A stretch of DNA of 12,293 nucleotides from Bradymonadia bacterium. Its GTDB lineage: Bacteria > Myxococcota_A > Bradymonadia > UBA7976 > UBA1532. Made by a program: the position numbers and the translations under genes. This document shows positions 1 through 11,936 of the stretch, in pieces (within the stretch, counting starts at the first letter, position 1; the number at the start of each line of letters is the position of its first letter). The DNA lies in assembly GCA_046290225.1 (NCBI GenBank), contig JBKAGE010000072.1, positions 99,764-112,056 of the forward strand, given 5' to 3'. The notes under the pieces are model-generated. The model was not told the origin of the DNA. It did not search any database and saw nothing but the letters and a program-made list of their open reading frames with translations.

Positions 1-238
1 CTGACCTCTCCGGTCGGGGCGACACCATCGACGCCTCCCTCGACGGCCACCCGGCCGTCCCCAGGGGAGGCCACGTGACCAGAGAGTTGGGTGCCAGTGT
101 TGGGGGCCAACAGGGCCGCGATGAGCAGGAGGCCGGCGCTCAAGTGGATGTTCCTCTCGTGCAGGTGGCGATTCTTATCAACGGACACGACGTCGAGAGC
201 ATCGTATACATTGAGCCGTATTTGTCTTTGGAGCACTC

Positions 239-1318
239 GTGGCAGACATCTTCCAGCGTAAACGTGATCACATCGCCCTCTCTCACACCGGTGACGTCGG
301 TCATGGCCAGCACCGCGGGCTCTTCGAGCACGTGCACCTCGTGCATCAGGCCATCCCTGAGTTGTCGATGGACGCCCTCGACCTCACCACCCCCTTCGGC
401 CACCGCGAGCTCTCGGCCCCCCTCATGCTCACGGGCATGACCGGCGGCCCGCCAGAAGCCGGTGACATCAATCGGGATCTCGCCCGCATCTGCGACGCCC
501 TCGGCCTCGCCTTCGGGGTGGGCAGCCAGCGGGTGATGACCCGGGCCGACGTGGCCACGCCCACGTTCCAGGTCCGCAGCCACGCCCCCAACGTGGTGCT
601 CCTCGGCAACGTGGGCATCAATCAGGCCCGGGACATGGGCACTCAGGCGGTGAAGGATCTGATGGAGGCCATCGAGGCCGACTTCATGGCGATCCACCTC
701 AACCCCGCCATGGAGCTGGTCCAGCCCGGCGCCGACGCAGATCGCGACTTTCGGGAGGGCTACGACACCCTCGGCCGCCTCATGGAGGCCCTCGACGGCC
801 ACATCGTGGTGAAGGAGTGTGGCTCGGGCATCAGCCCCGCGGTCATGTCCCGCCTCGTTTCCCTCGGCGTGCCCCTCGTAGACGTAAGCGGCAGCGGCGG
901 CACCAGCTGGGTGAAGGTAGAGGCGCTGCGGGCTCAGGGCCCCCTCGCCGATCTCGGACTCACCTTCGCCGACTGGGGGATCCCCACCGCCGCCGCCGTG
1001 GCCCTCGCCGCTGACGCCAGAGCTCAGGTTTCGGCCTCGAAGACGCAGATCATCGCCAGCGGCGGCATCGCCAACGGTCTCACCGCCACCAAAGCCCTGG
1101 CCCTCGGCGCCGACATCGCCGGGATGGCCCGGCCCGCTCTACAGGCGTACATGGATCACGGCGTCGAAGGGGCGACCACGTTTCTGAAGACGGTGATCTC
1201 CGGGGTCCGCATGGGCATGGCGCTCACCGGCTCTCGACGGCCGGAAGAGGTCCGCACGGCGTCGAAGATCATCACAGGCGATCTGCAGGCGTGGGTGCAG
1301 CAAGGCCGCCTTGGATGA
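239..1318 (+). CDS. fni: Type 2 (FMN-dependent) isopentenyl-diphosphate delta-isomerase
   Basis: GTG start at 239 with GGAG 7 nt upstream (228-231). N-terminus ...QRKRDHIAL... matches the conserved IDI-2 N-terminal R-K-x-D/E-H-I motif. Glycine-rich FMN/TIM-barrel motifs are present (VSGSGGTSW, IASGGIANG). The 359 aa length is typical for IDI-2. TGA stop at 1316-1318. Confidence 0.9.
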   Translation: MADIFQRKRDHIALSHTGDVGHGQHRGLFEHVHLVHQAIPELSMDALDLTTPFGHRELSAPLMLTGMTGGPPEAGDINRDLARICDALGLAFGVGSQRVMTRADVATPTFQVRSHAPNVVLLGNVGINQARDMGTQAVKDLMEAIEADFMAIHLNPAMELVQPGADADRDFREGYDTLGRLMEALDGHIVVKECGSGISPAVMSRLVSLGVPLVDVSGSGGTSWVKVEALRAQGPLADLGLTFADWGIPTAAAVALAADARAQVSASKTQIIASGGIANGLTATKALALGADIAGMARPALQAYMDHGVEGATTFLKTVISGVRMGMALTGSRRPEEVRTASKIITGDLQAWVQQGRLG

Positions 1319-1376
1319 GACATAGAATAAAATCGATATATCGGAGTCTACGCCGGAGTTTTCCACCAGGGCGACC

Positions 1377-2321
1377 TTGCGCCACGAGGCTCCTCAGATG
1401 ACCTTCAGCATCCCTACACTCGCATGTCTCGGTCTCGCCCTGCCTCTCGCTGCTCATGCAGAGGTGTGTGTCTCGGTGGACACGCAGGCCGACACCCTCA
1501 ACCCTGAAGAGCGCAAGGCCGCTGTCTTGCTGGCCCGTGGAGTCTTCGAAGACGCCGGCGAGTCGGTGGTCGACGCCCCGTGTCAGGCCGAGTATCGCCT
1601 CAGCAACGTGCGGCTGGGCACGCTCATCACTGCCCGCATCTCGGGGCCCAAGGGCACCAGCAAAGGCCAAGCCCAGTCTCTCGAAGAGCTCGGCGCCGTG
1701 TACGCGCGCTTGATCCCGAATTTGTTGTCCTCCGAGGCCGAAGCGGTCTCGGCGGCGACCTCGACGAAACAGAGCGCGCCGAGGGTCCGCGAGCGGGACG
1801 TGTGGTACATGCAGATCGGCGGGGGTCGACTGATCAGCGAAGACGCCGGCATGGGGGTGGTGAGGTTTGGGATGGGCAACCGCATCGACATGTCGGCCAA
1901 CATCGCGCTGGATTTCTCTGGCAGGGCGATCTTCGACACGGGGTCCGAAGAAGACAACGAGAGGGCTGGCGCTGGCGCCCTCGACGTCGGTGTCCGCGCC
2001 ATGGGCCTCTTCTTTCTCAACGACAGAGGCGATGGCAGCCCCTTCGCCGGCGCGGGCCTTGGCTACAACGTCACCTTTCTCGAGCACGCAGACGAGAGCT
2101 ACTCGGGCCATGGCCTCACAGCTGAGCTGTCTATGGGGTACGCGCTCTTCAGAACCTCACGAGGGAGTGTGTTTGCGCAACTCGACGCCACCTTGCCACT
2201 CTATTCAGTCGAGACAGATCAACTGAACGAGCTGATCGGCGTCGAGAGCGAAGACACCCTCACGCAGTACGCCCCCACCGTCACCCTCTCGCTGGGCTTC
2301 GGTTTCGACACCACCCGTTGA
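1377..2321 (+). CDS. Hypothetical secreted / outer-membrane-like protein with a signal peptide, inserted between fni and HMG-CoA reductase
   Basis: ORF 1377-2321 in the six-frame track. The TTG at 1377 (AGGG 6 nt upstream) gives n-region MRHEAPQ, a hydrophobic core MTFSIPTLACLGLALPLA and an AHA|E cleavage site. An alternative ATG start at 1398 (GAGG 8 nt upstream) gives a signal peptide without the charged n-region. The mature protein is Gly/Ser/Ala/Asp-rich, has alternating hydrophobic patterns and ends ...LSLGFGFDTTR, which is beta-barrel-like. I recognise no catalytic motif. Confidence 0.55.
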   Translation: MRHEAPQMTFSIPTLACLGLALPLAAHAEVCVSVDTQADTLNPEERKAAVLLARGVFEDAGESVVDAPCQAEYRLSNVRLGTLITARISGPKGTSKGQAQSLEELGAVYARLIPNLLSSEAEAVSAATSTKQSAPRVRERDVWYMQIGGGRLISEDAGMGVVRFGMGNRIDMSANIALDFSGRAIFDTGSEEDNERAGAGALDVGVRAMGLFFLNDRGDGSPFAGAGLGYNVTFLEHADESYSGHGLTAELSMGYALFRTSRGSVFAQLDATLPLYSVETDQLNELIGVESEDTLTQYAPTVTLSLGFGFDTTR

Positions 2322-2373
2322 CATCGCTTGGCACTCTCTGCACCTTCTGCTCGATCTGCACAGGAGCATCTCA

Positions 2374-3654
2374 ATGGCCGACAGCCGGATCCCGGGCTTC
2401 TACACCCTGCCTTTGTCCGAGCGCCACGAGGCGCTGAGCGAGCGCTTCGACCTCGACGAGGCTGATCTCGATCTGCTCCGCGCCGGCGGCGGCCTGCCCT
2501 TCGAGCGGGCCGACAAGATGGTGGAGAACTGCATCGGGGTCTTCGGCCTGCCCATCGGCCTGGGCCTGAACTTCACCATCAATGATCGCGACTACGCTGT
2601 GCCCATGGTGGTGGAAGAGCCTTCAGTGGTGGCGGCGGTGAGCAACATGGCCCGCACGGTCCGCAAGGCCGGGGGCTTCACCGCTGAGGCCGACGAGGGG
2701 GTGATGATCGCCCAGGTGCAGGTGGTCGACGTGCCCGATCTCGACGCCGGGGTGCAGGCCCTGCAGGCCGCCGAAGATCACATCCTCGCCAAAGCCAACG
2801 CGGTCCACCCCAATATGGCAGCCCGGGGGGGTGGGGCGCAGGCCATCGAGGTCCGTCGCTTCGACGAGCCCTGGCCCATGCTGGTGTTGCACCTTCTGGT
2901 GGACTGCTCCGACGCCATGGGGGCCAACGCGGTGAACGCCATGGCCGAGGGCGTTGCCCCGCTGGTGGCCGATCTCACCGGGGGTCGAGTCTACCTGCGC
3001 ATCTTGAGCAACCTCGCTGATCGTCGTCGGGCTCGGGCCATGTGCAAGATCCCCGTTGGCCTGATGGCGGGCAACGGCTTCGACGGTGCCAGCGTCGCCG
3101 AAGGGGTGGTGCAGGCCTGGCGCTTCGCAGCTGTGGATCCGTACCGCGCCGCCACCCACAACAAGGGGGTGATGAACGGCATCGACGCCGTGGCCATCGC
3201 CACGGGGAACGACTGGCGCGGGGTCGAGGCCGGCGCCCACGCCTTCGCCGCCCGCGATGGCCGCTACACCTCTCTCACAGAGTGGTGGCTCGAAGACGGT
3301 CACCTCTGCGGCGGCATCGATCTGCCCATGGCCGTGGGCACTGTCGGCGGGAGCACCAAGGTGCACCCGGTGCTGGCGGTGCTGCGCAAAATCCTCGGGG
3401 TAGAGTCGGCGAAGGAGCTGGCCATGGTGATGGCCTGTGTGGGCCTGTCACAGAACCTCGGCGCCCTGCGGGCTCTGGCCACCGAGGGCATCCAGCGCGG
3501 TCACATGTCTCTCCACGCCCGCTCCGTGGCCCTCGCCGTAGGGGCCAGCGAGACCGAGGTGGATCACGTGGCCCGACAGCTGGTGGCCCGGGGCAAGGTG
3601 AAGCACGACGAGGCGGCGGCGATCCTCGCCGACCTCCGCGCCACGGGCCGCTGA
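2374..3654 (+). CDS. mvaA: Class II (bacterial, Pseudomonas mevalonii MvaA-type) HMG-CoA reductase
   Basis: ATG at 2374 with CAGGAG 10 nt upstream. The 426 aa product aligns by eye along its whole length with class II HMGR. Matching blocks: ENCIGVFGLPIGLGLNFTIND, VPMVVEEPSVVAA, DAMGANAVNAMAE, RILSNLADRRRARA, AAVDPYRAATHNKGVMNGIDAVAIATGNDWRGVEAGAHA, ALATEGIQRGHMSLHAR. The last block contains the catalytic His of class II enzymes. Confidence 0.93.
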   Translation: MADSRIPGFYTLPLSERHEALSERFDLDEADLDLLRAGGGLPFERADKMVENCIGVFGLPIGLGLNFTINDRDYAVPMVVEEPSVVAAVSNMARTVRKAGGFTAEADEGVMIAQVQVVDVPDLDAGVQALQAAEDHILAKANAVHPNMAARGGGAQAIEVRRFDEPWPMLVLHLLVDCSDAMGANAVNAMAEGVAPLVADLTGGRVYLRILSNLADRRRARAMCKIPVGLMAGNGFDGASVAEGVVQAWRFAAVDPYRAATHNKGVMNGIDAVAIATGNDWRGVEAGAHAFAARDGRYTSLTEWWLEDGHLCGGIDLPMAVGTVGGSTKVHPVLAVLRKILGVESAKELAMVMACVGLSQNLGALRALATEGIQRGHMSLHARSVALAVGASETEVDHVARQLVARGKVKHDEAAAILADLRATGR

Positions 3655-3657
3655 CCC

Positions 3658-4611
3658 ATGACGACTCCTCGGCGAGGCACCGGCGCCGCGCCGGGCAAGG
3701 TCATCCTCTTCGGCGAGCACTCCGTGGTGCATGGCCAGCCGGCCATCGCCGCCGCCCTGGGCATCGGCCTCGGCGCCACCGCCACGGCGGGCGAGGGGCC
3801 ACCACAACTGAGCATCCCTGCATGGCAACAACAGATTCAGCTCAAAGCCAGCGGCGCCGGCTTCGACGCCCTGGACCGCGGCTTCGCCGCAGCGCTCGAA
3901 GCGGTGGGCCTCGATCCGACCCGTACAGCGGTGAAGGTCACCGTCGACGGTGAGCTGCCCCCGAGCGTGGGCCTCGGCAGCAGCGCCGCCTTCGCCGTGG
4001 CCCTGGTCCGGGCGCTCTCGAGCTTCGCTGGCGAACGCCTGAGCACTGATCGAGTCAGAGCTGCTGCAGAGCAGGTCGAGCGGGTGTTCCACGGCACCCC
4101 CAGCGGCCTCGACCACACCGTGGCCACCCTCGGCGGGTGTCTGCACTACCTGCGCACATCTGAAGGCCCACAATTCACCCCCATCACCCTGGCCCGGCCG
4201 ATCCCGGTGGTGGTCAGCTGGAGCCCACGGCGCGGGAGCACCCGCCAGGCAGTGTCCCACGTGGGCGCCCGGGCTGCCCGCTGGCCCGATCTGTACGGCC
4301 CGGTGCTCGAGGCCATGGGCCGTATCGCTCGAGAGGGCCAGGCAGCCCTCGAGGCTGGTGATCTGGCGCGCATCGGCGCCCTGTTCGACATCAACCATGG
4401 TCACCTGAACGCCCTCGGCGTGAGCAACGCCGACAACGAGCGCCTCGTGGCCATCGCCCGAGAGGCAGGGGCCCTCGGCGCCAAGCTCACAGGTGCAGGG
4501 CTCGGTGGCGCCGTCATCGCCGTCGCCCCGGAAGATCCCACACCGCTGCTCGAGGCTTTCGAGGCTGCCCGTTGTCCTGCCTTCGCCACCACAGTGGGCC
4601 GCGGCGATTGA
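3658..4611 (+). CDS. mvk: Mevalonate kinase (GHMP kinase family)
   Basis: ATG at 3658, 3 nt after the mvaA stop (TGAcccATG). GHMP motif 1 PGKVILFGEHSVVHG, motif 2 PPSVGLGSSAAFAVALVRAL and motif 3 KLTGAGLGGAVIAV are present. The 317 aa length is typical for bacterial MVK. Confidence 0.9.
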   Translation: MTTPRRGTGAAPGKVILFGEHSVVHGQPAIAAALGIGLGATATAGEGPPQLSIPAWQQQIQLKASGAGFDALDRGFAAALEAVGLDPTRTAVKVTVDGELPPSVGLGSSAAFAVALVRALSSFAGERLSTDRVRAAAEQVERVFHGTPSGLDHTVATLGGCLHYLRTSEGPQFTPITLARPIPVVVSWSPRRGSTRQAVSHVGARAARWPDLYGPVLEAMGRIAREGQAALEAGDLARIGALFDINHGHLNALGVSNADNERLVAIAREAGALGAKLTGAGLGGAVIAVAPEDPTPLLEAFEAARCPAFATTVGRGD

Positions 4612-5297
4612 TGAACCTCTGGCACCGGAGCCTCCTGGCGGCGCTCTGCCTTCTCTGCCCTGCCCTCACCTGGGCCGAGGGACCTTCAGAGAGCGCCCGC
4701 CATGCCACCACCCGGCTCTCCGGTGGGTACCTCAGCGGCCAATGGCGGCTGAGCGAGCGGCCCGAGCGCCTGCGGGCCGAGGGCCTCGTCTTCGGCGCCC
4801 GGCATCTCTGGGGTGACGCCGACGCACAGTGGCAACTCACCCTCGCCGGCCGTCGCTTGACGCTGACCCCCCAAGAAGACGGCGCTCGAGAGACATGGTG
4901 GGCCACATCCGCCCACGGTGGCTGGCGTGGCCGCTGGATCGCCTTTGAGTTGGGCGTACAGTGGTTCGAGGGTGCTGATGAAGCGTCGAACATTCTCCCC
5001 TCAGGGCGCCTGCGCCTTGGCCCCGAGTCGGCCTGGCTCGAAGTGTCGAGTGGAGACTGGGCTGCCCCCGTCCCCGTCCCCGGTCAGCATCGCGTGGGCG
5101 CGTCGGCGGCAGTGGGCCCCGGCCGTCTATGGGTGGGCGGCACCCTCGACGGACCAGATCCTGTCGCAGCGGTGCTCGCTGGCACCATCCCGCTCGGAGA
5201 GCGACTCCAGTTCGGGGTCTCGGCCTCGATGGCGCCGCGAGATGCAGATGACTTCACCCTCATCATGGCTCAACTCAGCGGAGGGCTGGACTGGTAG
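4611..5297 (+). CDS. Hypothetical secreted / outer-membrane-like Trp-rich protein, translationally coupled to mvk
   Basis: ATG at 4611-4613 overlaps the mvk TGA (4609-4611) as TGATG. N-terminus MNLWHRSLLAALCLLCPALTWA|EGP is a classical type I signal peptide with no lipobox. The 228 aa product is Trp/Gly/Arg-rich and ends ...QLSGGLDW, a C-terminal aromatic residue as in outer-membrane beta-barrels. The longer track ORF starting at 4572 would overlap mvk by 40 nt and is less likely. Confidence 0.6.
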   Translation: MNLWHRSLLAALCLLCPALTWAEGPSESARHATTRLSGGYLSGQWRLSERPERLRAEGLVFGARHLWGDADAQWQLTLAGRRLTLTPQEDGARETWWATSAHGGWRGRWIAFELGVQWFEGADEASNILPSGRLRLGPESAWLEVSSGDWAAPVPVPGQHRVGASAAVGPGRLWVGGTLDGPDPVAAVLAGTIPLGERLQFGVSASMAPRDADDFTLIMAQLSGGLDW

Positions 5298-5323
5298 AGC
5301 AGCCGTTAGAAGTCCGCTCTACC
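5293..5323 (+). other. 8-bp stem-loop overlapping the stop codon of the 4611-5297 gene
   Basis: GGTAGAGC (5293-5300) pairs with GCTCTACC (5316-5323) around a 15-nt loop, and the TAG stop at 5295-5297 lies inside the stem. No U-tract follows. It could be a stabilising 3' hairpin or an attenuator ahead of the NYN-CSD gene, which starts 91 nt downstream at 5414. Confidence 0.3.
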
Positions 5324-5413
5324 TGCGTCCAGCCTTTCACTGATCATCAGCAACATCCGATTGATTCAGTGTGATACAAGTCCGCGCTCACAACTCGAAA
5401 AGGAACCCTACCC

Positions 5414-6175
5414 ATGTTGAAAGCGGGTGTTTACGTCGACGCCGAGAACGTCGCACGCTGTGGGGGGTGGGGCATGCGTTTCGATATCTTGCGACAGTTC
5501 ATCGAGGCTCAAGGCGTACGGGTGCTCCGAGCCAATGTCTACCTCGCGGTGGATCAGGAGAGAGAAGAGAAGGACTGGCTCTACCGCGACAAGAAGCTGG
5601 CCTACCGGGCGGTCCTGAGGCGCCAGGGCTACAAAGTGGTCCCCAAATTCGTCAAACGCTACCGCAACGAAGAAGGCGAGCTGGTCACCAAGGCCAACGC
5701 AGATCTCGACCTCGCCGTCGACGCCCTGCTGCAAGCACAGCGCCTCGACTACATGATGCTGGTGAGCGGCGATGGCGACTTCGTACGGCTGGTGAACGCC
5801 CTGCAAAACTTCGGCTGTCGGGTGGACGCCCTCGGCTTCCACAACGTCTCCAGGGCCTTGCGCGACGCCGTGGACACCTACCACTCGGGCTTCTTCGTGC
5901 CCGAGCTGCTGCCCACCACGGATGATCGTCTGCGCGGCTTCATGCACAGCGTCGACGAAGAAAAATACTTCGGCTGGATCACCACCTGGGGCGACTTGAG
6001 CCCCGAGAGCGTGAGCACTGACATCTTCGTGCACGGAAACGACGTGGAGGGCGGCACCCTGAGCAATGGGCAGTTCGCCAACCTCAAGGTGCATCAGACG
6101 CCCATCGAGTTCACCCTCGACGTGAACGACGAGGGCCAGCCGCGGGCGGTGGACGTGAAGATTCTGCGGCCATGA
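5414..6175 (+). CDS. NYN-domain (LabA-like, PIN-fold RNase) protein with a C-terminal cold-shock/OB-fold-like domain
   Basis: ATG at 5414 with AAGGAA upstream. The N-terminal ~160 aa show the NYN/LabA signature: VYVDAENV near the N-terminus, then ADLDLAVDALLQA and MMLVSGDGDFVRLV, with conserved acidic residues of a PIN-like nuclease. The C-terminal ~70 aa (YFGWITTW..DIFVHGNDVEG..GQFANLKV..GQPRAVDVKIL) parallel the CspA pattern (KGFGFI..DVFVHFSAI..GQKVSF..GPAAGNVTSL). That pattern is an OB-fold nucleic-acid-binding domain. The long antisense ORF 5408-6337 is rejected. Confidence 0.78.
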   Translation: MLKAGVYVDAENVARCGGWGMRFDILRQFIEAQGVRVLRANVYLAVDQEREEKDWLYRDKKLAYRAVLRRQGYKVVPKFVKRYRNEEGELVTKANADLDLAVDALLQAQRLDYMMLVSGDGDFVRLVNALQNFGCRVDALGFHNVSRALRDAVDTYHSGFFVPELLPTTDDRLRGFMHSVDEEKYFGWITTWGDLSPESVSTDIFVHGNDVEGGTLSNGQFANLKVHQTPIEFTLDVNDEGQPRAVDVKILRP

Positions 6176-6177
6176 TG

Positions 6178-6328
6178 CTGTGAGCGGACGGCCGTGCCTT
6201 CGGCAACGCCTGTAGCGGACGACCCAGCAAAAGCTTTCGCTTCGCTGCGTCTGTAGCGGACGCCTCGCCTTCGGCGAGAGCTGTAGCGGACGCTCATTTG
6301 CCTCCGGCAAATTCCCTGTAGCTTTTTT
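6178..6328. repeat. Left arm of the hairpin-module repeat array: 5 copies of the CTGTAGCGGACG motif on the + strand
   Basis: Read directly from the sequence. Motif copies lie at 6178-6190 (CTGTGAGCGGACG), 6209-6221, 6251-6262, 6281-6292 and a truncated 6315-6322 (CTGTAGC) followed by T6 (6323-6328). Each inter-motif spacer holds its own short perfect hairpin: TGCC-TTC-GGCA (6195-6205), CAGC..GCTG around an AAAGCTTT palindrome (6225-6247), CTCGCC-TTC-GGCGAG (6264-6278), ATTTGCC-TCC-GGCAAAT (6296-6312). Confidence 0.85.
6296..6328 (+). terminator. Weak intrinsic-terminator-like element for the + strand NYN-CSD gene
   Basis: A 7-bp hairpin ATTTGCC(TCC)GGCAAAT at 6296-6312 is followed 10 nt later by TTTTTT (6323-6328). 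The hairpin-to-U-tract distance is longer than canonical, so this is weak. Confidence 0.3.
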
Positions 6329-6447
6329 GAAGATCACTTTGGGGGCGTGGGCTCATCTACCGCGAACGTTGTGACCCAATGACGCACCAGCTCCGGCGTA
6401 AGCCCCAACCTGGGCTGAGAAGCCCACCAAGTGCAGCATAACTCTCT

Positions 6448-6479
6448 AAAAAAGCTACAGCCCAGGCTGCCGGAGGCAG
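6448..6479 (-). terminator. Weak intrinsic-terminator-like element for the - strand flavoprotein/Fe-S membrane operon
   Basis: On the - strand a 5-bp hairpin CTGCC(TCC)GGCAG (6479-6467) is followed by ~13 nt and then TTTTTT (the complement of A6 at 6448-6453). It faces the + strand element across the 119-bp core. Confidence 0.3.
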
Positions 6480-6593
6480 ACTCGGCGTCCGCTACAGCTC
6501 TGCAAGGCGAAGCCGAAGCAGGCGTCCGCTACAGGCGGTGCGCAGCACGGCCGTCCGCTCCAGACGCAGCGAAGCTGGGTCGTCCGCTCAACA
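6448..6593. repeat. Right arm of the array: 5 copies of the same motif on the - strand, in mirror-image order
   Basis: The reverse-complement motif CGTCCGCTACAG lies at 6486-6497 and 6523-6534. Variants CGTCCGCTCCAG lie at 6552-6563 and CGTCCGCTCAACA at 6581-6593. The truncated copy A6-GCTACAG is at 6448-6460. Spacer hairpins read on the - strand are CTGCC-TCC-GGCAG (6467-6479), GGC-TTC-GCC / GC-TTCG-GC composite (6498-6521), GTGC-TGC-GCAC (6538-6548) and CAGC-TTC-GCTG (6567-6577). The outermost units of the two arms are near-identical (GAGCGGACGGCCGTGC, GAGCGGACGACCCAGC). Confidence 0.85.
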
Positions 6594-6595
6594 CC

Positions 6596-7972
6596 TCAGC
6601 TCTTGAGCGACTTGATGAGCTCCGACAGGGGGGCGTCGGCGCCGTCGAAACGATCGCTCACCTTACCGTTCTCCAGCTTGAGCACCCCTCGGGGGCACAC
6701 CGCAGCGCAAATGCCGCAGCCCACGCAGCTCGCCCGGACGATGTTCTCACCCTTCTGAGCGTATTTACGCACGTCGATGCCCATCTCGCAGTAGGTCGAG
6801 CAGTTACCACAGGAGATGCACTGCCCGCCGTTGGTGGTGATGCGGAACCGGCTGAAGAAGCGCTGACCCAGACCCAGAATCGCGGCCATCGGGCAGAAGA
6901 AGCGGCACCACACCCGGCTGCCCATCAGGGGGTAGAAGCCCACGCCGACGACGCCGGAAAGCATGGCGCCCACGAGGAAGCCGTAGGTCTTCGACGCCGC
7001 CTGGCTGAAGTCCCCAAGGACCTTGCCCTCAGTGTAACTGTTGATCCAGATCACCAGGGTGACCACGGTGATCGACACCAGCACTAGGTGAATCGCCCAG
7101 CGCTCGAAGCGCCACGCCTTGATGGACTTGTCGCTGAGATGCCGGAAGGGATCACCGGCGGTCTCGGCAAGACCACCGCAACCACACACCCACGAGCAGT
7201 ACCAGCGCTTACCGAAGTACCATGTGAGCAGTGGGGTCAGGATGAAGCTCGCGGCGATGCCCCAGAACACCATGAAGGTGCCCAGGCCACCAGGCTGCTC
7301 CATGAGCCACTTGATGTCGTTGGGGAACAAGTAGTTGTACTTCAGGGGCCAGAAGTAGGTGAAATAGAACTCGGGCTGACTCATCAGCTTCAGAAACTGC
7401 GGGATCAAGAACCCGAAGCCCAGCTGGAAGAACATCACCGAGAGCGTACGGAAGATTTGGTACTTGTTGTGGCGGTAGCGGAAGATCATCCGCACGCCCA
7501 TCAGCACCACCCCGAAGGTGTACAGGGTGCCATAGAGGAACCACTGATCAGCGCCCTTACCGTTGAGCAGCTTGCCCAGCGGCTCCACGAGGGCGATGGC
7601 CCCTGACAGCGAGCTGCCGTGCCAGTAGAGCATCACGTACAGCGTGGTGATGACTACCCCGAGGATGATGCCCACCGTACCGCGGGACTTGGTGCCGTCG
7701 GTCATGGTGCCGTTGTTCTTGATGCCCGGTACCGTTCCGCTGTAGGTGGCGACGATGTGACCGATGGTGCCCACAGTGATGGGCCCGAAGACCGAGAAGA
7801 AACCCACCCAGCCACCGAGACGCCAGCCAAAGAGAGCGGCGGCAAAGAGGGCGGCGCTCAGCAGAATCAGGCCGGTGCTGATTTTGCGGAGCTGTTGCAT
7901 TTGAGCGCTCACCTCGTGGGTGGCACCGTGACCGTCGACGAGAGAGATGCTTGCGTTGATCGGGTTGCTCAT
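6596..7972 (-). CDS. Polytopic membrane iron-sulfur protein of the NapH/MauN/NosR/CcoG (FixG) type, with a C-terminal 2x[4Fe-4S] ferredoxin domain
   Basis: The true start is ATG at 7972-7970 (MSNPINAS...). The ORF track's 95-aa N-terminal extension overlaps the upstream gene and is rejected. There are about 9-10 hydrophobic helices. Two CxxxCP-type membrane-proximal motifs, KRWYCSWVCGCGG and RVWCRFFCPMAAILG, match the R-x-(F/W)-C-R-x-x-C-P-x-G signature of NapH/MauN-family proteins. The C-terminus carries CISCGNCSTYCE and CVGCGICAAVCP (CxxCxxCxxxC[P/E]). The stop (TGA) is on the + strand as TCA at 6596-6598. The start overlaps the upstream flavoprotein stop as ATGA, which suggests translational coupling. 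Confidence 0.8.
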   Translation of the reverse strand: MSNPINASISLVDGHGATHEVSAQMQQLRKISTGLILLSAALFAAALFGWRLGGWVGFFSVFGPITVGTIGHIVATYSGTVPGIKNNGTMTDGTKSRGTVGIILGVVITTLYVMLYWHGSSLSGAIALVEPLGKLLNGKGADQWFLYGTLYTFGVVLMGVRMIFRYRHNKYQIFRTLSVMFFQLGFGFLIPQFLKLMSQPEFYFTYFWPLKYNYLFPNDIKWLMEQPGGLGTFMVFWGIAASFILTPLLTWYFGKRWYCSWVCGCGGLAETAGDPFRHLSDKSIKAWRFERWAIHLVLVSITVVTLVIWINSYTEGKVLGDFSQAASKTYGFLVGAMLSGVVGVGFYPLMGSRVWCRFFCPMAAILGLGQRFFSRFRITTNGGQCISCGNCSTYCEMGIDVRKYAQKGENIVRASCVGCGICAAVCPRGVLKLENGKVSDRFDGADAPLSELIKSLKS

Positions 7973-9252
7973 CGGACCTGCTCCATGAACGTGCCTACGA
8001 TGTTGCGCTCGTGCTTCCGGTAGAACTCGGGATCGAAGTTCGCATCCCGCATGTGGGCGAAGACGTACTCCGCATCTCTCTCCTCGGCGATCCACCGCTC
8101 GCAGACCCGGTGTCGATACCGGATGCCCATGGCGTTCACACCCTTGATGATCCCGTCTTGGAAGACCAGACGCATCGAATGCCGACGACTGGGGTGCTCC
8201 CAATACAGGTTCTTCTCGCGCTCGAGGTCCCGCTTCACCTGACCGTAGGTGTGCCACTCGAGATCGAGGAACTTGGCAGAGTTGAACCAGATGCCCTGCT
8301 CATAGGTGCGATCGATGCCGCTGATGACGTCGCCGGCCACCTGCCCCTGAGCCTTGCCGGTGTACCAGACCTGCTCGATGGTGTTCCGGGCGTCTCCGGG
8401 GTTCACCAGCTCGGCGCAGTCGCCCACGGCGTAGACCCCTTCGACCTGCGTCTGGAGCTTCCAGTCCACCAGGATCCCACGACCGGTGGGGATGCCTGAG
8501 CCTTCGAGTGCGGACAGGTTGGGCCGTACACCCGCGGTGAGGCCCACGAACTCGCAGTCGATGCGCTCGCCGTCTTTGGTCATCACGCCGCAGACGCGCC
8601 CATGGCCATCATCCAGGATCTCGGCGAGCTCGGTCTCGAGACGCAGATCGATGTGCTGCTCGTAGATGTGGTGGTTCACCAGGGCCGACTCTTCGGCGGG
8701 GAGCACGTTGCTCCAGTACGACTTCTCACGGGCGAGGATGCTCACGTGCTTGCCGCGTGCATGGAGCATCTCGGCGAGCTCGATGCCGATGAGGCCCCCA
8801 CCGACGATGACCCCGCGCTTGATGCGATGGCTGTTGGCCTCGAGGCTGTAGAGATCCTGCAGGCTGTACATGCCGTGCACGCCTTCGAGATCCTGACCGG
8901 GCCAGCCGAACTTGTTGGGCTGGCTGCCCACGGCGAGCACCAGCTTGTCGTAGGCGATCGAGGTGCGGGTGTCGTTGACGCTGTTGAGCGTCAGCCGGCG
9001 GTTCTCGGTGTCGATGTGGGTGACCCAGCCCTGCACCCGCTCGATGCGGTTGAGATCCCATACATGGTTCTCGTACGGGCGGGTCTGGGCCTCGGTCATG
9101 TGCCCCATGTAGATGTACATGAGGGCTGGTCGCGAGAAGAAGTACTCCGACTCTCCGGAGATCAGCGAGATGCGCCAGTCAGGATGGTTTTTGCGTATGC
9201 GAAACGCTGTGGTCACCCCTGAGATGCCGTTGCCGATGATCGCGATGTGCAT
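7969..9252 (-). CDS. FAD/NAD(P)H-dependent oxidoreductase of the two-dinucleotide-binding-domain fold (ferredoxin-reductase / pyridine nucleotide-disulfide oxidoreductase family)
   Basis: Start chosen at the second Met (ATG 9252-9250; MHIAIIGNGISGV = FAD GxGxxG) because AAGGAAGGGAG lies 4-8 nt upstream. The track ORF begins 11 codons earlier at 9285. The NAD(P) Rossmann motif KRGVIVGGGLIGIELAE and the second FAD motif GVYAVGDCA are present. No redox-active CxxxxC or single active-site Cys appears near the N-terminus, which makes a ferredoxin/rubredoxin-reductase-like enzyme more likely than a disulfide reductase. The stop TGA is TCA at 7969-7971 on the + strand. Confidence 0.85.
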   Translation of the reverse strand: MHIAIIGNGISGVTTAFRIRKNHPDWRISLISGESEYFFSRPALMYIYMGHMTEAQTRPYENHVWDLNRIERVQGWVTHIDTENRRLTLNSVNDTRTSIAYDKLVLAVGSQPNKFGWPGQDLEGVHGMYSLQDLYSLEANSHRIKRGVIVGGGLIGIELAEMLHARGKHVSILAREKSYWSNVLPAEESALVNHHIYEQHIDLRLETELAEILDDGHGRVCGVMTKDGERIDCEFVGLTAGVRPNLSALEGSGIPTGRGILVDWKLQTQVEGVYAVGDCAELVNPGDARNTIEQVWYTGKAQGQVAGDVISGIDRTYEQGIWFNSAKFLDLEWHTYGQVKRDLEREKNLYWEHPSRRHSMRLVFQDGIIKGVNAMGIRYRHRVCERWIAEERDAEYVFAHMRDANFDPEFYRKHERNIVGTFMEQVR

Positions 9253-9510
9253 GGTCTCCCTTCCTTGCAGCCTCAACCGGCCCACACACGACCGCGCCTA
9301 CACCACCGGTGATGCCCAGCACGGGCTGTGGCCGATGAGGTGATACAGCGCGATGTATGCGTATGAGTGTATACCCAGATGTCGTCGGCGCGAGTTCAGG
9401 ACATGAGTTTCACGTCATGCTCCCGCGACGGCCTGGGCTGAAGAACTGCTCAATCTGTGTTCGTTGGAGTCTACGCGGCCAGAAAGACGGTGTTACACGC
9501 CTGTTTAAGT

Positions 9511-10596
9511 TTACAACGAGACGCTGAGTCCGGCGGGGCAGATGGGCAGGACCTCGACGTGCCAGCCGGCGGCCTCGTAGGCCGACTTCAAGGGAGCGAG
9601 GTCGGCTGCATAGCGGGGCAGAACCCAGGACATGTCTCCGCCAGCGGCGCCAGTGGGCTTCGCCGCAGCGCCGTGTGCCTCTGCGATGTACGAGATGGAT
9701 TCGTGGGCGGGGATGATGAGAGGCACCTCTGCGTCCTGGCCCAGGGCGGTGATGGCTTCAGCGCCCATCCTCACAGCCTCGACGAGGGCACTTCGATCTG
9801 CGTTGAAGAGCGCGCCCTGCCCTGCCCTGGCGGCAGCTTCGATGCCCGCTCTGCGCAGCCGCCACCCCTCAGGGTTCTGCTGCGCCCAACGCTTGATTTG
9901 AGGCACCAGCACCTTGGTGCTCGCCGACTGACCCGTCCACACCATCATGAGGGGGGTCTCTTCGAGCCACTGTGTGTGACCAGCCCAGCAGTACATCTCG
10001 TCGACGACAGTCCGCCACGCCGCCCAGGCGTTGAGATCGGTGCTGGCCTCGTGGATGGTCCTCAGCCGGTAGATGATCACGCCGCCCATGACCGAGGCGG
10101 CGACATCCGCGCCGCTGCCTGATCCTTGCACCGCCCGGTGGGCGCCGTGTACCCGCTCGAAGATGATTCGACGAATGTTGCGCTCTTCCGAACGCTGACC
10201 GCTGACGAGTTGACCTGCCCCACCTGCTGCGGCGAGGGCGCCAGCGAGGGCTACGCTGACAGCAGCACTGCTGCCAAGGCCCAGCTTGATGCCTTCGGCC
10301 TGACTGTAGAGGGCGCTGCTGTCGGTGGTGAACCGACCGGCGGAAGGCGCTGGCCATCGATCGAGCAGCCCCTGCACGAAGGCCAGTGGATCCCCAGAGG
10401 GGCTGTGCCGTCCGACATGAGCCAGCTGCTCGGTGAGTCCTGGCGCCGCGATTTCGGTCCGCTCTGGACCGAGGGTCACCGCACACTTCGCCCGACGCTC
10501 AACGGCAGCGACGATGGCGATGCAGTTGTCGAGCACTGCATACTCACCAAAGAGCATGACCTTGCCAGGGGCGCGGGCGACGTACGGCTTCAGCAT
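9511..10596 (-). CDS. mvaK2: Phosphomevalonate kinase (GHMP, ERG8/MvaK2 type)
   Basis: True start is ATG 10596-10594 (MLKPYVARAPGKVMLFGEYAVL = GHMP motif 1). The track ORF's 35-aa Arg-rich extension runs back into mvaD and is rejected. GHMP motif 2 GIKLGLGSSAAVSVALAGALAAA and motif 3 KPTGAGGGDMSWVL are present. Stop TAA is TTA at 9511-9513. The start lies 7 nt inside the mvaD 3' end (ATGCTGA). Confidence 0.85.
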   Translation of the reverse strand: MLKPYVARAPGKVMLFGEYAVLDNCIAIVAAVERRAKCAVTLGPERTEIAAPGLTEQLAHVGRHSPSGDPLAFVQGLLDRWPAPSAGRFTTDSSALYSQAEGIKLGLGSSAAVSVALAGALAAAGGAGQLVSGQRSEERNIRRIIFERVHGAHRAVQGSGSGADVAASVMGGVIIYRLRTIHEASTDLNAWAAWRTVVDEMYCWAGHTQWLEETPLMMVWTGQSASTKVLVPQIKRWAQQNPEGWRLRRAGIEAAARAGQGALFNADRSALVEAVRMGAEAITALGQDAEVPLIIPAHESISYIAEAHGAAAKPTGAAGGDMSWVLPRYAADLAPLKSAYEAAGWHVEVLPICPAGLSVSL

Positions 10597-11567
10597 GTCT
10601 CGACCTGCGCCCCCGGACCAGGCGCGGCGACGAGCACTTCGCTCACGCCAGGTACGGCCTTCAGGGTGCTGGCGATGTGCTCGGCATCCTCGGCAGCGCA
10701 CAACACCTTGACGTGGGGGCCTGCGTCCATCGTGTACCAGGCGCTCACGCCCTGCTCACGCAGCTGGTGCACCTGCTCCATGGCGGCGAGGGTGGCGGAG
10801 CGCCAATAGATGAGCGGTGGACGCCCCGCCATCATGCAGGCGTGCATCTTGAGGGTGGAGTGCTCCATCATCTCACCAAGCGTGTCCAAATCTCGCGCGT
10901 TGATGGCAGCCTCGGCGGCCTGCATGTCGGCCTCGTGGCTGCTCACCCAGGAGGCGAAGTAGGGACTGGTGCGGGCGGAGCTCTCCATGCCGACGCGAGA
11001 GCTGATTTTCTTGGGGCCCTTCTCGGTGAGGCAGAGCACCATGCGCAGCGGCCATGCCTCAGGCGTGGCAATCTGACGAATCTGTCCTTCGACCTTGTCG
11101 AGCACGACGAACCCGCCGAGCAATGATCTTGGCGCCGAGCCGGATCCGATCCGTGTGAGCTCGGCCTTGTGAGGATCTTCAGGGTCGAGGCCGGCAGCGG
11201 CCCAGGCAGCTGCGACGAGAGCAGCGAACCCACTGGCGCTGCTGGCGAGGCCCGCTGCGGTGGGTACGGTGTTCTCGCTGTTGACCCGAGCATGGGGCAA
11301 CGGGATGCCATGTGATCCAGCATGCTGTCGCACGGCGTCGAGAATGGGCTGTACCCGCCCGGCGTCGGCCTCGACGCCATTGAGCTGGAACTGGTGGTGG
11401 CTCAATGCGCTGTCGAAGATCACCTCGGTGCGGGTGCCGGGGGCGTCGAGGGTGAGCGACAGGCTACTGACTGCGGGCAGGTTGAGCTCGGCGTCTCGTT
11501 TGCCCCAGTACTTGATCAGGGCGACGTTGATGCCGGCCTGGGCGATGGCTCGGTGAGGCTGCTGCAT
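10590..11567 (-). CDS. mvaD: Diphosphomevalonate decarboxylase
   Basis: True start is ATG 11567-11565 (MQQPHRAIAQAGINVALIKYWGKRD). This sits 13 residues before the universally conserved NIALIKYWGKRD block, as in characterised MVDs. GHMP motif VPTAAGLASSASGFAALVAAA and RIGSGSAPRSL are present, and the C-terminal YTMDAGPHVKVL block matches MVD. The 43-aa N-terminal extension in the track ORF (PVPVPVPVPV..., Pro-rich) is read-through of the upstream microsatellite and is rejected. No SD-like motif lies upstream of this start. Confidence 0.88.
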   Translation of the reverse strand: MQQPHRAIAQAGINVALIKYWGKRDAELNLPAVSSLSLTLDAPGTRTEVIFDSALSHHQFQLNGVEADAGRVQPILDAVRQHAGSHGIPLPHARVNSENTVPTAAGLASSASGFAALVAAAWAAAGLDPEDPHKAELTRIGSGSAPRSLLGGFVVLDKVEGQIRQIATPEAWPLRMVLCLTEKGPKKISSRVGMESSARTSPYFASWVSSHEADMQAAEAAINARDLDTLGEMMEHSTLKMHACMMAGRPPLIYWRSATLAAMEQVHQLREQGVSAWYTMDAGPHVKVLCAAEDAEHIASTLKAVPGVSEVLVAAPGPGAQVETC

Positions 11568-11666
11568 GGGGGCTCGCTGGGCGGGGGTCGGAGGTGATGG
11601 ATGGGGTTGTTTTAGCGTGGGTGGGGGTGGTTGTGGAGGGTTCGCTCCGCGGGTGAGAGAGTTTTC

Positions 11667-11696
11667 GGGCACGGGCACGGGCACGGGCACGGGCAC
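11667..11696. repeat. (GGGCAC)5 perfect hexanucleotide tandem repeat, about 100 bp upstream of the mvaD start
   Basis: Read directly from the sequence: gggcac x5 at 11667-11696. It is preceded by a G-run-rich tract at 11581-11645 (GGGGG, GGG, GGGGG, GGG... on the + strand, so C-rich in the mvaD leader). Confidence 0.9.
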
Positions 11697-11936
11697 GAGT
11701 CGAATATCCCTGGGCTTTTTTGATGGATGGGCTGCTCGCCGAGCGTGGGGGGCGGCGTGTTGGCTTTTGGAGGTGGGCGCCAGGTTACGGGAACGTCACA
11801 CCCCACCCATTGTGGAACACCTGCACCAAACCGCTCCACAATGAAACGCAACGCAGAATGGGTCACAGGGTTAATGTGTGAGAAACGCTTAAAATCACCG
11901 TCTGGCACACAGCATGCATTTAAGTATGTGCGAATG

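Follow-up and report, generated by a model that had tools for sequence, protein, structure and literature searches.

A 12,293-nucleotide stretch of DNA from a Bradymonadia bacterium (assembly GCA_046290225.1, contig JBKAGE010000072.1, positions 99,764 to 112,056; in the following the window, numbered from its first letter) carries on its minus strand two overlapping genes, one for a flavoprotein and one for a membrane protein with iron-sulfur (Fe-S) motifs. The flavoprotein and the membrane protein form one tight two-gene module. Our tentative preference, to which we give not quite an even chance, is that the pair is a self-contained two-subunit, membrane-bound NAD(P)H-dependent reductase with a lipophilic acceptor, i. 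e. a general and widespread module and not an accessory of the mevalonate (MVA) pathway, among whose genes it lies in the window.

Conservation of the gene pair

The locus set comprised 80 genome loci, 80 metagenome loci and six loci from exact look-ups, altogether 166 loci with the membrane gene (designated by L and a number where they have to be told apart). Adjacency was counted in the 134 loci with at least 1.5 kb of upstream DNA. In 128 of these the flavoprotein gene is the immediate upstream neighbour and has the same orientation; in the first 84 loci by themselves the count was 77 of 78. Such a recurrence is an observation far beyond chance, and the two genes are thus co-conserved with each other, as a preliminary description of the window had presumed. 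The ATGA overlap of stop and start codon mentioned there is present (Table 1), and the same 4-bp overlap occurs in L004, L085 and L086. Spacing in the related loci is often this 4-bp overlap or a few bases.

In the exceptions, the flavoprotein gene is either missing from the stretch examined or displaced (L167). In an Ignavibacteria locus (L056) the Pyr_redox_2 flavoprotein upstream of the membrane gene is replaced by an acyl-CoA dehydrogenase with all three ACAD domains (8386-9723, plus strand). Four gene-called loci, among them Rhodothermota, Chitinophagales and Calditrichota, have Pyr_redox_2 directly upstream of the polyferredoxin, while their other neighbours are mutually unrelated.

Against the window proteins, the membrane proteins of the related loci are 53-68% identical and the flavoproteins 42-62%. 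The pair occurs in 14 or more phylum-level lineages, among them Bacteroidota, Rhodothermales, Calditrichota, Ignavibacteria/Kapaibacteria/Chlorobiota, Latescibacterota, Krumholzibacteriia, Eisenbacteria, Fischerbacteria, Gemmatimonadota, Dadabacteria/Thermodesulfobacteriota, Myxococcota, Bdellovibrionales, Planctomycetota and Armatimonadota. The neighbours of the pair were surveyed by clustering of flanking open reading frames (ORFs) and a Pfam census in about 60 dereplicated loci, and recurrence was counted across all 166 loci. This survey gave no universal third gene near the pair. Domain content, topology, co-conservation and the lack of fixed neighbours are what the analysis observed.

Table 1. 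Features of the gene pair and its flanks, in window coordinates
Feature	Position	Strand	Details
Flavoprotein gene	7969..9252	minus	427 residues; classed by sequence as ferredoxin-reductase-type FAD/NAD(P)H oxidoreductase, no redox-active cysteine
FAD-binding GxGxxG	9217..9234	minus	GNGISG, residues 7-12; motif and orthologue conservation
NAD(P)H-binding GxGxxG	8785..8802	minus	GGGLIG, residues 151-156; motif and orthologue conservation
GDCA motif	8413..8424	minus	residues 277-280; motif and orthologue conservation
Stop/start overlap (ATGA) of the two genes	7969..7972	minus	...CGATGAGC...
Membrane polyferredoxin gene	6596..7972	minus	458 residues; 8 transmembrane (TM) helices; family-specific N-terminal TM domain (about 1-250) and NapH-like C-terminal half
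Aromatic loop between TM5 and TM6	7322..7378	minus	QPEFYFTYFWPLKYxYLFP, residues 199-217; near-invariant; predicted periplasmic
CxxxCxC, cytoplasmic loop after TM6	7178..7198	minus	CSWVCGC, residues 259-265; aligns with first CxxxCP of E. coli NapH
CxxxCP, cytoplasmic, just after TM8	6890..6907	minus	CRFFCP, residues 356-361; from the family alignment and the NapH alignment
2x[4Fe-4S] ferredoxin-type domain	6692..6820	minus	C385/388/391/395 and C416/419/422/426; Fer4 models, invariant cysteines
Spacer, phosphomevalonate kinase stop to flavoprotein start	9253..9510	minus	258 bp; Shine-Dalgarno-like AAGGAAGGGAGA directly before ATG
Terminator-like hairpin, then T-run	6457..6470	minus	likely transcript end

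The flavoprotein

The flavoprotein scores 177.3 bits with Pyr_redox_2 (PF07992, cut-off 26.1), and together with its two GxGxxG motifs and the GD motif this assigns it to the FAD/NAD(P)-dependent pyridine nucleotide-disulfide oxidoreductase fold. The motifs of Table 1 and the lack of a redox-active cysteine had been noted before and were found again, with no conserved active-site cysteine in 69 orthologues. The four cysteines of the protein are at positions 221, 233, 279 and 384, none of them before residue 221. Across the orthologues only C233 (90%) and C279 of the GDC (97%) are conserved, and no cysteine is conserved in the N-terminal active-site region. A signal peptide is absent.

The best NCBIfam matches were the NirB N-terminus, CoA-disulfide reductase, PadH, NorW and HcaD, every one of them far below its cut-off (NirB, the best, 146.9 bits vs 578; NorW 131 vs 392; PadH 133 vs 475). 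The top PDB sequence matches were CoA-disulfide reductases, the FAD subunit of aldehyde oxidoreductase (8c0z_E, residues 4-378) and ferredoxin and rubredoxin reductases. These matches, combined with the missing active-site cysteine, class the product of the first gene as a ferredoxin-reductase-type flavoprotein and not as a disulfide reductase. The disulfide reductases CoADR, Nox/Npx and GR were rejected because there is no conserved active-site cysteine near residue 40-50, and the named ferredoxin or rubredoxin reductase equivalogs (NirB N-terminus, NorW, HcaD, PadH, AndAa) because their equivalog cut-offs were unreached. R175 and E176, which follow strand beta2, are conserved to at least 90%, so that the preference for NADH or NADPH is undecidable from the sequence. 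The segment SRPAL (residues 40-44) presumably resembles the RPPLS segment of ferredoxin reductases.

The membrane Fe-S protein

Hydropathy, the helices of the AlphaFold2 (AF2) model and the positive-inside charge pattern in 39 homologues agree on 8 TM helices with both termini in the cytoplasm, and not on the roughly ten helices that had been proposed. Loops 2-3, 4-5 and 6-7 and the segment following TM8 have net charges of +2.2 to +5.1, and the remaining loops are near zero. By this charge pattern the ferredoxin-type domain is placed in the cytoplasm, and all Fe-S motifs of the protein are predicted to be on the cytoplasmic side. The AF2 model has a pLDDT of 69.6 and a pTM of 0.72.

All 13 cysteines of the protein (C259/263/265, C356/360, C385/388/391/395 and C416/419/422/426) are invariant in an alignment of 39 sequences. 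The C-terminal 2x[4Fe-4S] domain of the preliminary description was recovered with the models Fer4_9, Fer4_7 and Fer4_10, all above their cut-offs; its motifs are CISCGNCSTYC at residues 385-395 and CVGCGICAAVCP at residues 416-427. Of the two CxxxCP-type motifs claimed there, the second is canonical whereas the first is a CxxxCxC. Fer4_5 (PF12801) matches across two stretches with 30.2 bits (gathering threshold 22), which assigns the protein to the Fer4_5 membrane Fe-S superfamily. A Pfam scan of the protein detected no FMN_bind and no FixG_C or immunoglobulin-like (Ig-like) domain; periplasmic cysteines are absent as well. The alignment of 39 sequences contains no invariant histidine, so that nothing points to a transmembrane electron relay by haem.

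Conservation is concentrated on the cytoplasmic side. The frequency of the majority residue is 0.81 in loop 4-5, 0.87 in loop 6-7, 0.90 after TM8 and 0.92 in the Fe-S domain, as compared with 0.58-0.70 in the periplasmic loops and 0.42-0.47 in TM1-2; TM3 to TM8 are strongly conserved.

Residues 251-434, which are 25% identical to E. coli NapH, are the sole part resembling that protein. Residues 1-250 are a separate domain without NapH counterpart, and a search of 1.84 billion representatives matched only 259 representative clusters. In the full-length examples inspected this domain was found only joined to the NapH-like half, and among the matches listed (150 representatives) there was no fusion to a flavoprotein. 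About ten representatives (P0138, P0142, P0153, P0161, P0171, P0187 and others) are 580-664 residues long and have an N-terminal extension of about 190 residues without Pfam domain.

The membrane protein is matched by more than 8000 clusters at 90% identity, yet we found no curated family, no solved relative and no paper for it. The PDB search gave generic ferredoxin-domain matches only, and no solved structure resembles the whole protein. Literature searches brought up no paper on this membrane family or on its pairing with a flavoprotein, in agreement with the preliminary description, which knew of no described pairing with a cytoplasmic NAD(P)H flavoprotein; only a general survey of NapH-like proteins surfaced (PMC8238504).

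Comparison with known systems

NapH, the quinol-dehydrogenase subunit (NapGH) of periplasmic nitrate reductase, has the same order of TM helix, Cys motif, two TM helices, CxxxCP and cytoplasmic 2x[4Fe-4S] domain. Both Cys motifs of the membrane protein align with those of NapH, the first being here CxxxC followed by G-C instead of P. However, the scores are 60.3 bits vs 213.05 for TIGR02163 and 50.6 vs 234 for NapH PRK09477. NapH and MauN have a four-helix anchor in about 255-290 residues, whereas the protein described here has 8 helices in 458 residues, with the extra N-terminal domain of about 250 residues. NapH is partnered by the periplasmic NapG and NapA, whereas the partner here is a cytoplasmic flavoprotein, and no nap gene was detected within 10 kb of the pair in the 166 loci (tblastn with E. 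coli NapA, B, C, F and G); in the window, the one match of the NapG query is to the ferredoxin domain that the membrane gene encodes. The nitrate reductase partners, which the preliminary description named as a context that would speak against its own proposal, were thus not encountered, and its placement of the protein in the NapH/MauN family had to be given up on score, size and gene context. The NosR/NirI/PceC-type NapH-like proteins are built on the same membrane Fe-S core (PF12801), which serves there as a modular unit of electron transfer. They carry or adjoin a periplasmic flavinylated FMN_bind domain and respiratory reductases, whereas here neither is present and the input would come from a cytoplasmic FAD protein; FMN_bind is also absent from the 25 commonest neighbour families of the Pfam census, and neither the clustering of neighbours nor the census brought up recurrent respiratory-reductase or oxidase-maturation genes. 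The pair is thus outside the type of flavinylated NapH-like systems surveyed by Meheust et al. (2021; PMC8238504).

For the flavoprotein, the closest parallels are FAD subunits through which electrons pass between NAD(H) and a partner protein, either Fe-S or rubredoxin. It aligns over residues 4-378 with AorC of the tungsten aldehyde oxidoreductase AorC-AorA (PDB 8c0z, chain E; E 1.5e-28), and also with PadH of phenylglyoxylate dehydrogenase, with NorW, the partner of flavorubredoxin, and with HcaD. In contrast to these, the Fe-S partner here is an integral membrane protein, there is no conserved catalytic third subunit, and the equivalog models stay below cut-off. BphA4, putidaredoxin reductase and TodA have in common with the flavoprotein the two-Rossmann FAD/NAD fold, the lack of a catalytic cysteine and a C-terminal domain. 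Here, however, there is neither an oxygenase nor a soluble ferredoxin as neighbour, and the gene is translationally coupled to that of a membrane protein.

CcoG/FixG is a cupric reductase, and its clusters face the cytoplasm. Like the membrane protein, it combines Fer4_5 with a ferredoxin-type dicluster on a polytopic membrane protein. Its C-terminal Ig-like FixG_C domain and ccoGHIS context are absent here, with no cco-type genes recurring among the neighbours, and a dedicated NAD(P)H flavoprotein is present instead. Set beside all these systems, the pair is a membrane Fe-S module of the NapH type that differs in its novel N-terminal domain and has a cytoplasmic NAD(P)H flavoprotein as dedicated partner, and it is apparently uncharacterised.

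Proposed function

Since all Fe-S motifs are predicted to be cytoplasmic and the two genes form a unit, a chain from NAD(P)H through FAD to membrane Fe-S clusters is the natural reading, and here we retain the minimal electron-transfer chain of the preliminary description. We infer the direction of electron flow, a third cluster and the kind of acceptor. The soluble FAD protein would take up hydride from NAD(P)H and hand single electrons to the cytoplasmic 2x[4Fe-4S] domain. From there the electrons would pass to a third site at the cytoplasmic membrane surface, formed by the five invariant cysteines after TM6 and TM8 and probably holding another [4Fe-4S] cluster. This third site would then reduce a lipophilic acceptor held by the 8-helix domain. 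On account of the homology to NapH, a relative coupled to quinol/quinone, the menaquinone pool is our default guess for the acceptor, and the pair would then be a non-canonical NAD(P)H:quinone oxidoreductase; the chances of this particular assignment are well below even.

Several observations speak for an NAD(P)H-fed membrane reductase of general use. The gene adjacency, the invariance of all 13 cysteines, the concentration of conserved residues and positive charge on the side of the Fe-S motifs, the motif-by-motif match to NapH and the lack of a haem-binding histidine all count in its favour. Over nearly its whole length the flavoprotein, which has no active-site cysteine, aligns with FAD subunits serving Fe-S partners (8c0z_E, PadH, NorW, HcaD and the N-terminal part of NirB). 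A NAD kinase gene is near the pair in 11 of the 166 loci, in about half of them beside it and divergent and in the others a few kb off. The change of neighbours from phylum to phylum fits a general-purpose module, and the acyl-CoA dehydrogenase in L056 fits a module that can be fed by different flavin dehydrogenases.

Other points weigh against it. No quinone-binding site was identifiable in the membrane protein, and the carrier organisms presumably possess other NADH:quinone oxidoreductases already. The AF2 model is only moderately confident and is weakest across the NapH-like half. Chemistry confined to the cytoplasmic side leaves the periplasmic aromatic loop and the conserved outer ends of TM3 and TM4 unexplained. 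Finally, two deep clades show, in differing gene orders, a recurrent association of the pair with genes for DUF547, glycosyltransferases and ArsS-type proteins, described below, and this hints at a more specific job.

Should the pair be such a reductase, reducing power of the cytoplasm would have a way into the membrane that has gone unrecognised, and this in environmentally dominant carriers (Bacteroidota, Rhodothermota, Gemmatimonadota, Myxococcota, Dadabacteria, Planctomycetota). Within the NapH superfamily the pair would moreover be the first module whose cytoplasmic electron donor is defined, and it would help to explain how NapH-like proteins are wired. If the pair instead tailors a lipid carrier or glycolipid, it would be a new piece of envelope biochemistry.

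Linkage to mevalonate genes and the isoprenoid alternative

MVA genes adjoin the pair in 4 of 167 loci: the window, L019 (a Myxococcales metagenome-assembled genome), L085 (GCA_963169045.1) and L099 (a metagenome contig). All four have the order diphosphomevalonate decarboxylase (MDD), phosphomevalonate kinase (PMK), flavoprotein, membrane gene, and L085 has the whole window arrangement. In a neighbour-joining tree of the membrane protein they fall within one clade of 15 leaves, whose other members lack the linkage; L086, which is nearer in sequence (67% identical), lacks an MVA neighbour. One ancestral rearrangement would be enough to explain the linkage. PMK and flavoprotein ORFs overlap or abut in L019 and L099 and are 31 bp apart in L085, and this spacing makes co-transcription of the four genes plausible within the clade. 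The MVA placement is therefore lineage-specific synteny and no general clue to the function of the pair. A mevalonate-pathway accessory gene was rejected for the same reason: in 163 of the 167 loci no MVA gene is next to the pair, and the four exceptions belong to one clade. Of the isoprenoid-linked function deduced earlier from the position of the genes, what stands is the operon-like arrangement inside this clade; as a general statement it did not stand up to the refuting condition set for it.

A possible interpretation that keeps the isoprenoid link is that the Fe-S site reduces or tailors a polyprenyl lipid, for instance through saturation of a polyprenyl phosphate carrier or of the side chain of a quinone. 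We consider this unlikely, and it is the alternative that survives best. It would join the MVA context of the window's clade, where the MDD-PMK-flavoprotein-membrane gene order is operon-like, with a context of polyprenyl-phosphate-type glycosyltransferases elsewhere: a small GT2 gene occurs near the pair in 29 of the 166 loci, its best matches being dolichyl- and polyprenyl-phosphate hexose transferases (AglJ with 133 bits, PpgS), and an MptB/GT87-like GT-C gene in 15. In the Ignavibacteria locus L056 an IDI-2 gene is located 8 kb from the membrane gene. Reductive isoprenoid chemistry is done by [4Fe-4S] enzymes such as IspH and by ferredoxin-fed geranylgeranyl reductase. However, the MVA linkage may go back to a single event, the GT2 matches are far below the family cut-offs, and the 25 most frequent Pfam families flanking the pair on each side include neither a prenyl synthase nor a quinone-biosynthesis family. 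Moreover, we know of no reduced polyprenol in these phyla.

Recurrent neighbours and further alternatives

Besides the small GT2 and the GT-C gene, the recurrent neighbours include a glycosyltransferase of the GT2_3/GT21 type with 500 residues (28 of 166 loci), DUF547 (19 loci, in at least eight of them directly upstream on the same strand), TIGR04282 (10 loci) and the radical-S-adenosylmethionine (SAM) protein ArsS (TIGR04167; six loci, 452 bits and above cut-off in the L012 and L025 clusters). In L025 these families form a cluster on one strand (3-11311) with the order ArsS, GT2, TIGR04282, GT2_3, GT87, unknown, DUF547, DUF547, flavoprotein, membrane gene. The one-strand cluster of L012 (1245-15922) has the order ArsS, rhodanese, TIGR04282, TIGR04283-like, nucleoside phosphorylase, Omp85, PHO4, DUF547, DUF547, flavoprotein, membrane gene, GT2_3, Omp28, unknown, methyltransferase (SAM). 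Three families in these clusters bear the NCBI name 'arsenosugar biosynthesis'. L025 belongs to the window's clade, and the Bacteroidota loci differ from it in gene order; the association of the pair with DUF547, glycosyltransferases and ArsS has thus survived rearrangement.

This association allows the isoprenoid idea to be framed more widely, with the pair as an Fe-S/flavin reductase of a polyprenyl or other isoprenoid-derived membrane lipid that works with DUF547 lipoproteins and glycosyltransferases of the polyprenyl-phosphate type in the FCB group, Myxococcota and allied phyla. The product could be a saturated dolichol-like carrier or a tailored lipid-linked glycoconjugate. Such a role would explain both the mevalonate operons and the glycosyltransferase/ArsS clusters; in this wider form we regard it as slightly less likely still.

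The pair could also feed low-potential electrons from the membrane, where it is anchored, to enzymes of the cytoplasmic side, above all to those of the radical-SAM type like ArsS, and would then be an NAD(P)H:ferredoxin-like reductase without membrane substrate. Radical-SAM clusters require a one-electron donor, and in L012 and L025 the pair lies inside clusters with ArsS, TIGR04282 and a TIGR04283-like glycosyltransferase. Yet the pair is far more widespread than ArsS, and a simple donor would hardly need an 8-helix domain that is 53-68% identical across phyla, with TM3 to TM8 strongly conserved. This makes a mere supplier rather improbable.

Alternatively, cytoplasmic reducing power could be exported across the membrane to an extracytoplasmic partner, for example the DUF547 lipoproteins or the secreted proteins of the window. 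The DUF547 proteins beside the pair (7860-8648 in L009, and 18 other loci) begin with a signal or lipoprotein sequence and share a conserved C-x4-C-P motif; our searches brought up no bacterial literature on DUF547. L009 also encodes, two genes ahead of the pair, a protein with a DM13 ('electron transfer') domain and a type IX secretion C-terminal tail (6211-6858). The near-invariant aromatic loop faces the periplasm in our prediction, and electron export has been proposed for NapH-like proteins of the NosR/PceC type (Meheust et al. 2021; PMC8238504). On the other hand, there is no haem-binding histidine, periplasmic cysteine or FMN_bind domain, hence no visible carrier across the approximately 30 Angstrom of the membrane, and DUF547 is missing from about 89% of the loci. 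The two secreted proteins of the window, to which electrons might be delivered according to the preliminary description, have no homologue in any of the 166 loci, and they were dropped as partners. Export is improbable in our view, more so than a donor function.

Least of all do we expect a reductase of metals or metalloids that resembles CcoG, works at the cytoplasmic face of the membrane, draws on an NAD(P)H input of its own and has Cu(II), Fe(III) or pentavalent arsenicals as substrate: the Fer4_5 and dicluster architecture, the fifth invariant cysteine C265 beside the putative cluster and the PHO4 transporter, rhodanese and SAM methyltransferase of the arsenosugar-type clusters would suit it, but the FixG_C/Ig-like domain is missing, the arsenic-type context is rare, and the Pfam census of neighbours gave no recurrent oxidase-assembly genes or metal transporters.

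One further neighbour is a protein of 446 residues without Pfam or NCBIfam match, whose gene immediately precedes the flavoprotein gene, in the same orientation, in 10 of the 166 loci, all of the Dadabacteria type (L006, 7247-8587, and nine similar loci from Dadabacteria/Thermodesulfobacteriota); a rhodanese-domain sulfurtransferase is encoded about 2.3 kb upstream.

Other features of the window

The window has a G+C content of about 65%, and its membrane protein is identical to an NCBI entry (P0001) from a Bradymonadia metagenome-assembled genome. Its plus strand carries, in this order, genes for IDI-2, a secreted protein resembling outer-membrane proteins, HMG-CoA reductase, mevalonate kinase, a second secreted protein and an NYN-domain protein. 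The minus-strand genes converge on this set with the order MDD, PMK, the 258-bp spacer, flavoprotein and membrane protein. On its minus strand the spacer has no terminator-like site, in agreement with the earlier statement that the gap lacks a convincing one. An Rfam scan of the spacer gave no match and its folding z-score of -2.4 is unremarkable, and a riboswitch or other RNA element was rejected. A scan for sigma-70 promoters found none, the scan being uninformative for this lineage.

Directly after the stop codon of the membrane gene and ahead of the terminator-like hairpin (6470-6457) there is a 29-nt tandem repeat (6514-6588; 2.7 copies, 77% matches). Just upstream of the MDD coding region, the hexanucleotide CGGGCA is perfectly repeated 5.3 times (11666-11697); it would encode PVPVPV if a far-upstream GTG were the MDD start. 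The gene of the NYN-domain protein (PF01936, 94 bits; 5414-6175, plus strand) is situated between the two MVA operons, which converge on each other. About 95 residues at the C-terminus of the protein have no Pfam match, and it has no homologue in any related locus. The mevalonate kinase ORF (3658-4611) and the following plus-strand ORF (4572-5297), which encodes a secreted protein of 241 residues without known family, have an overlap of 40 nt in the ORF list, and the latter may in truth start farther downstream. At the right end of the window, domains V and VI of a group II intron (Rfam RF00029; 12193-12275, minus strand) were recognised with 49.1 bits (gathering threshold 40, E 2.5e-7), and the remainder of this intron would fall past the end of the window.

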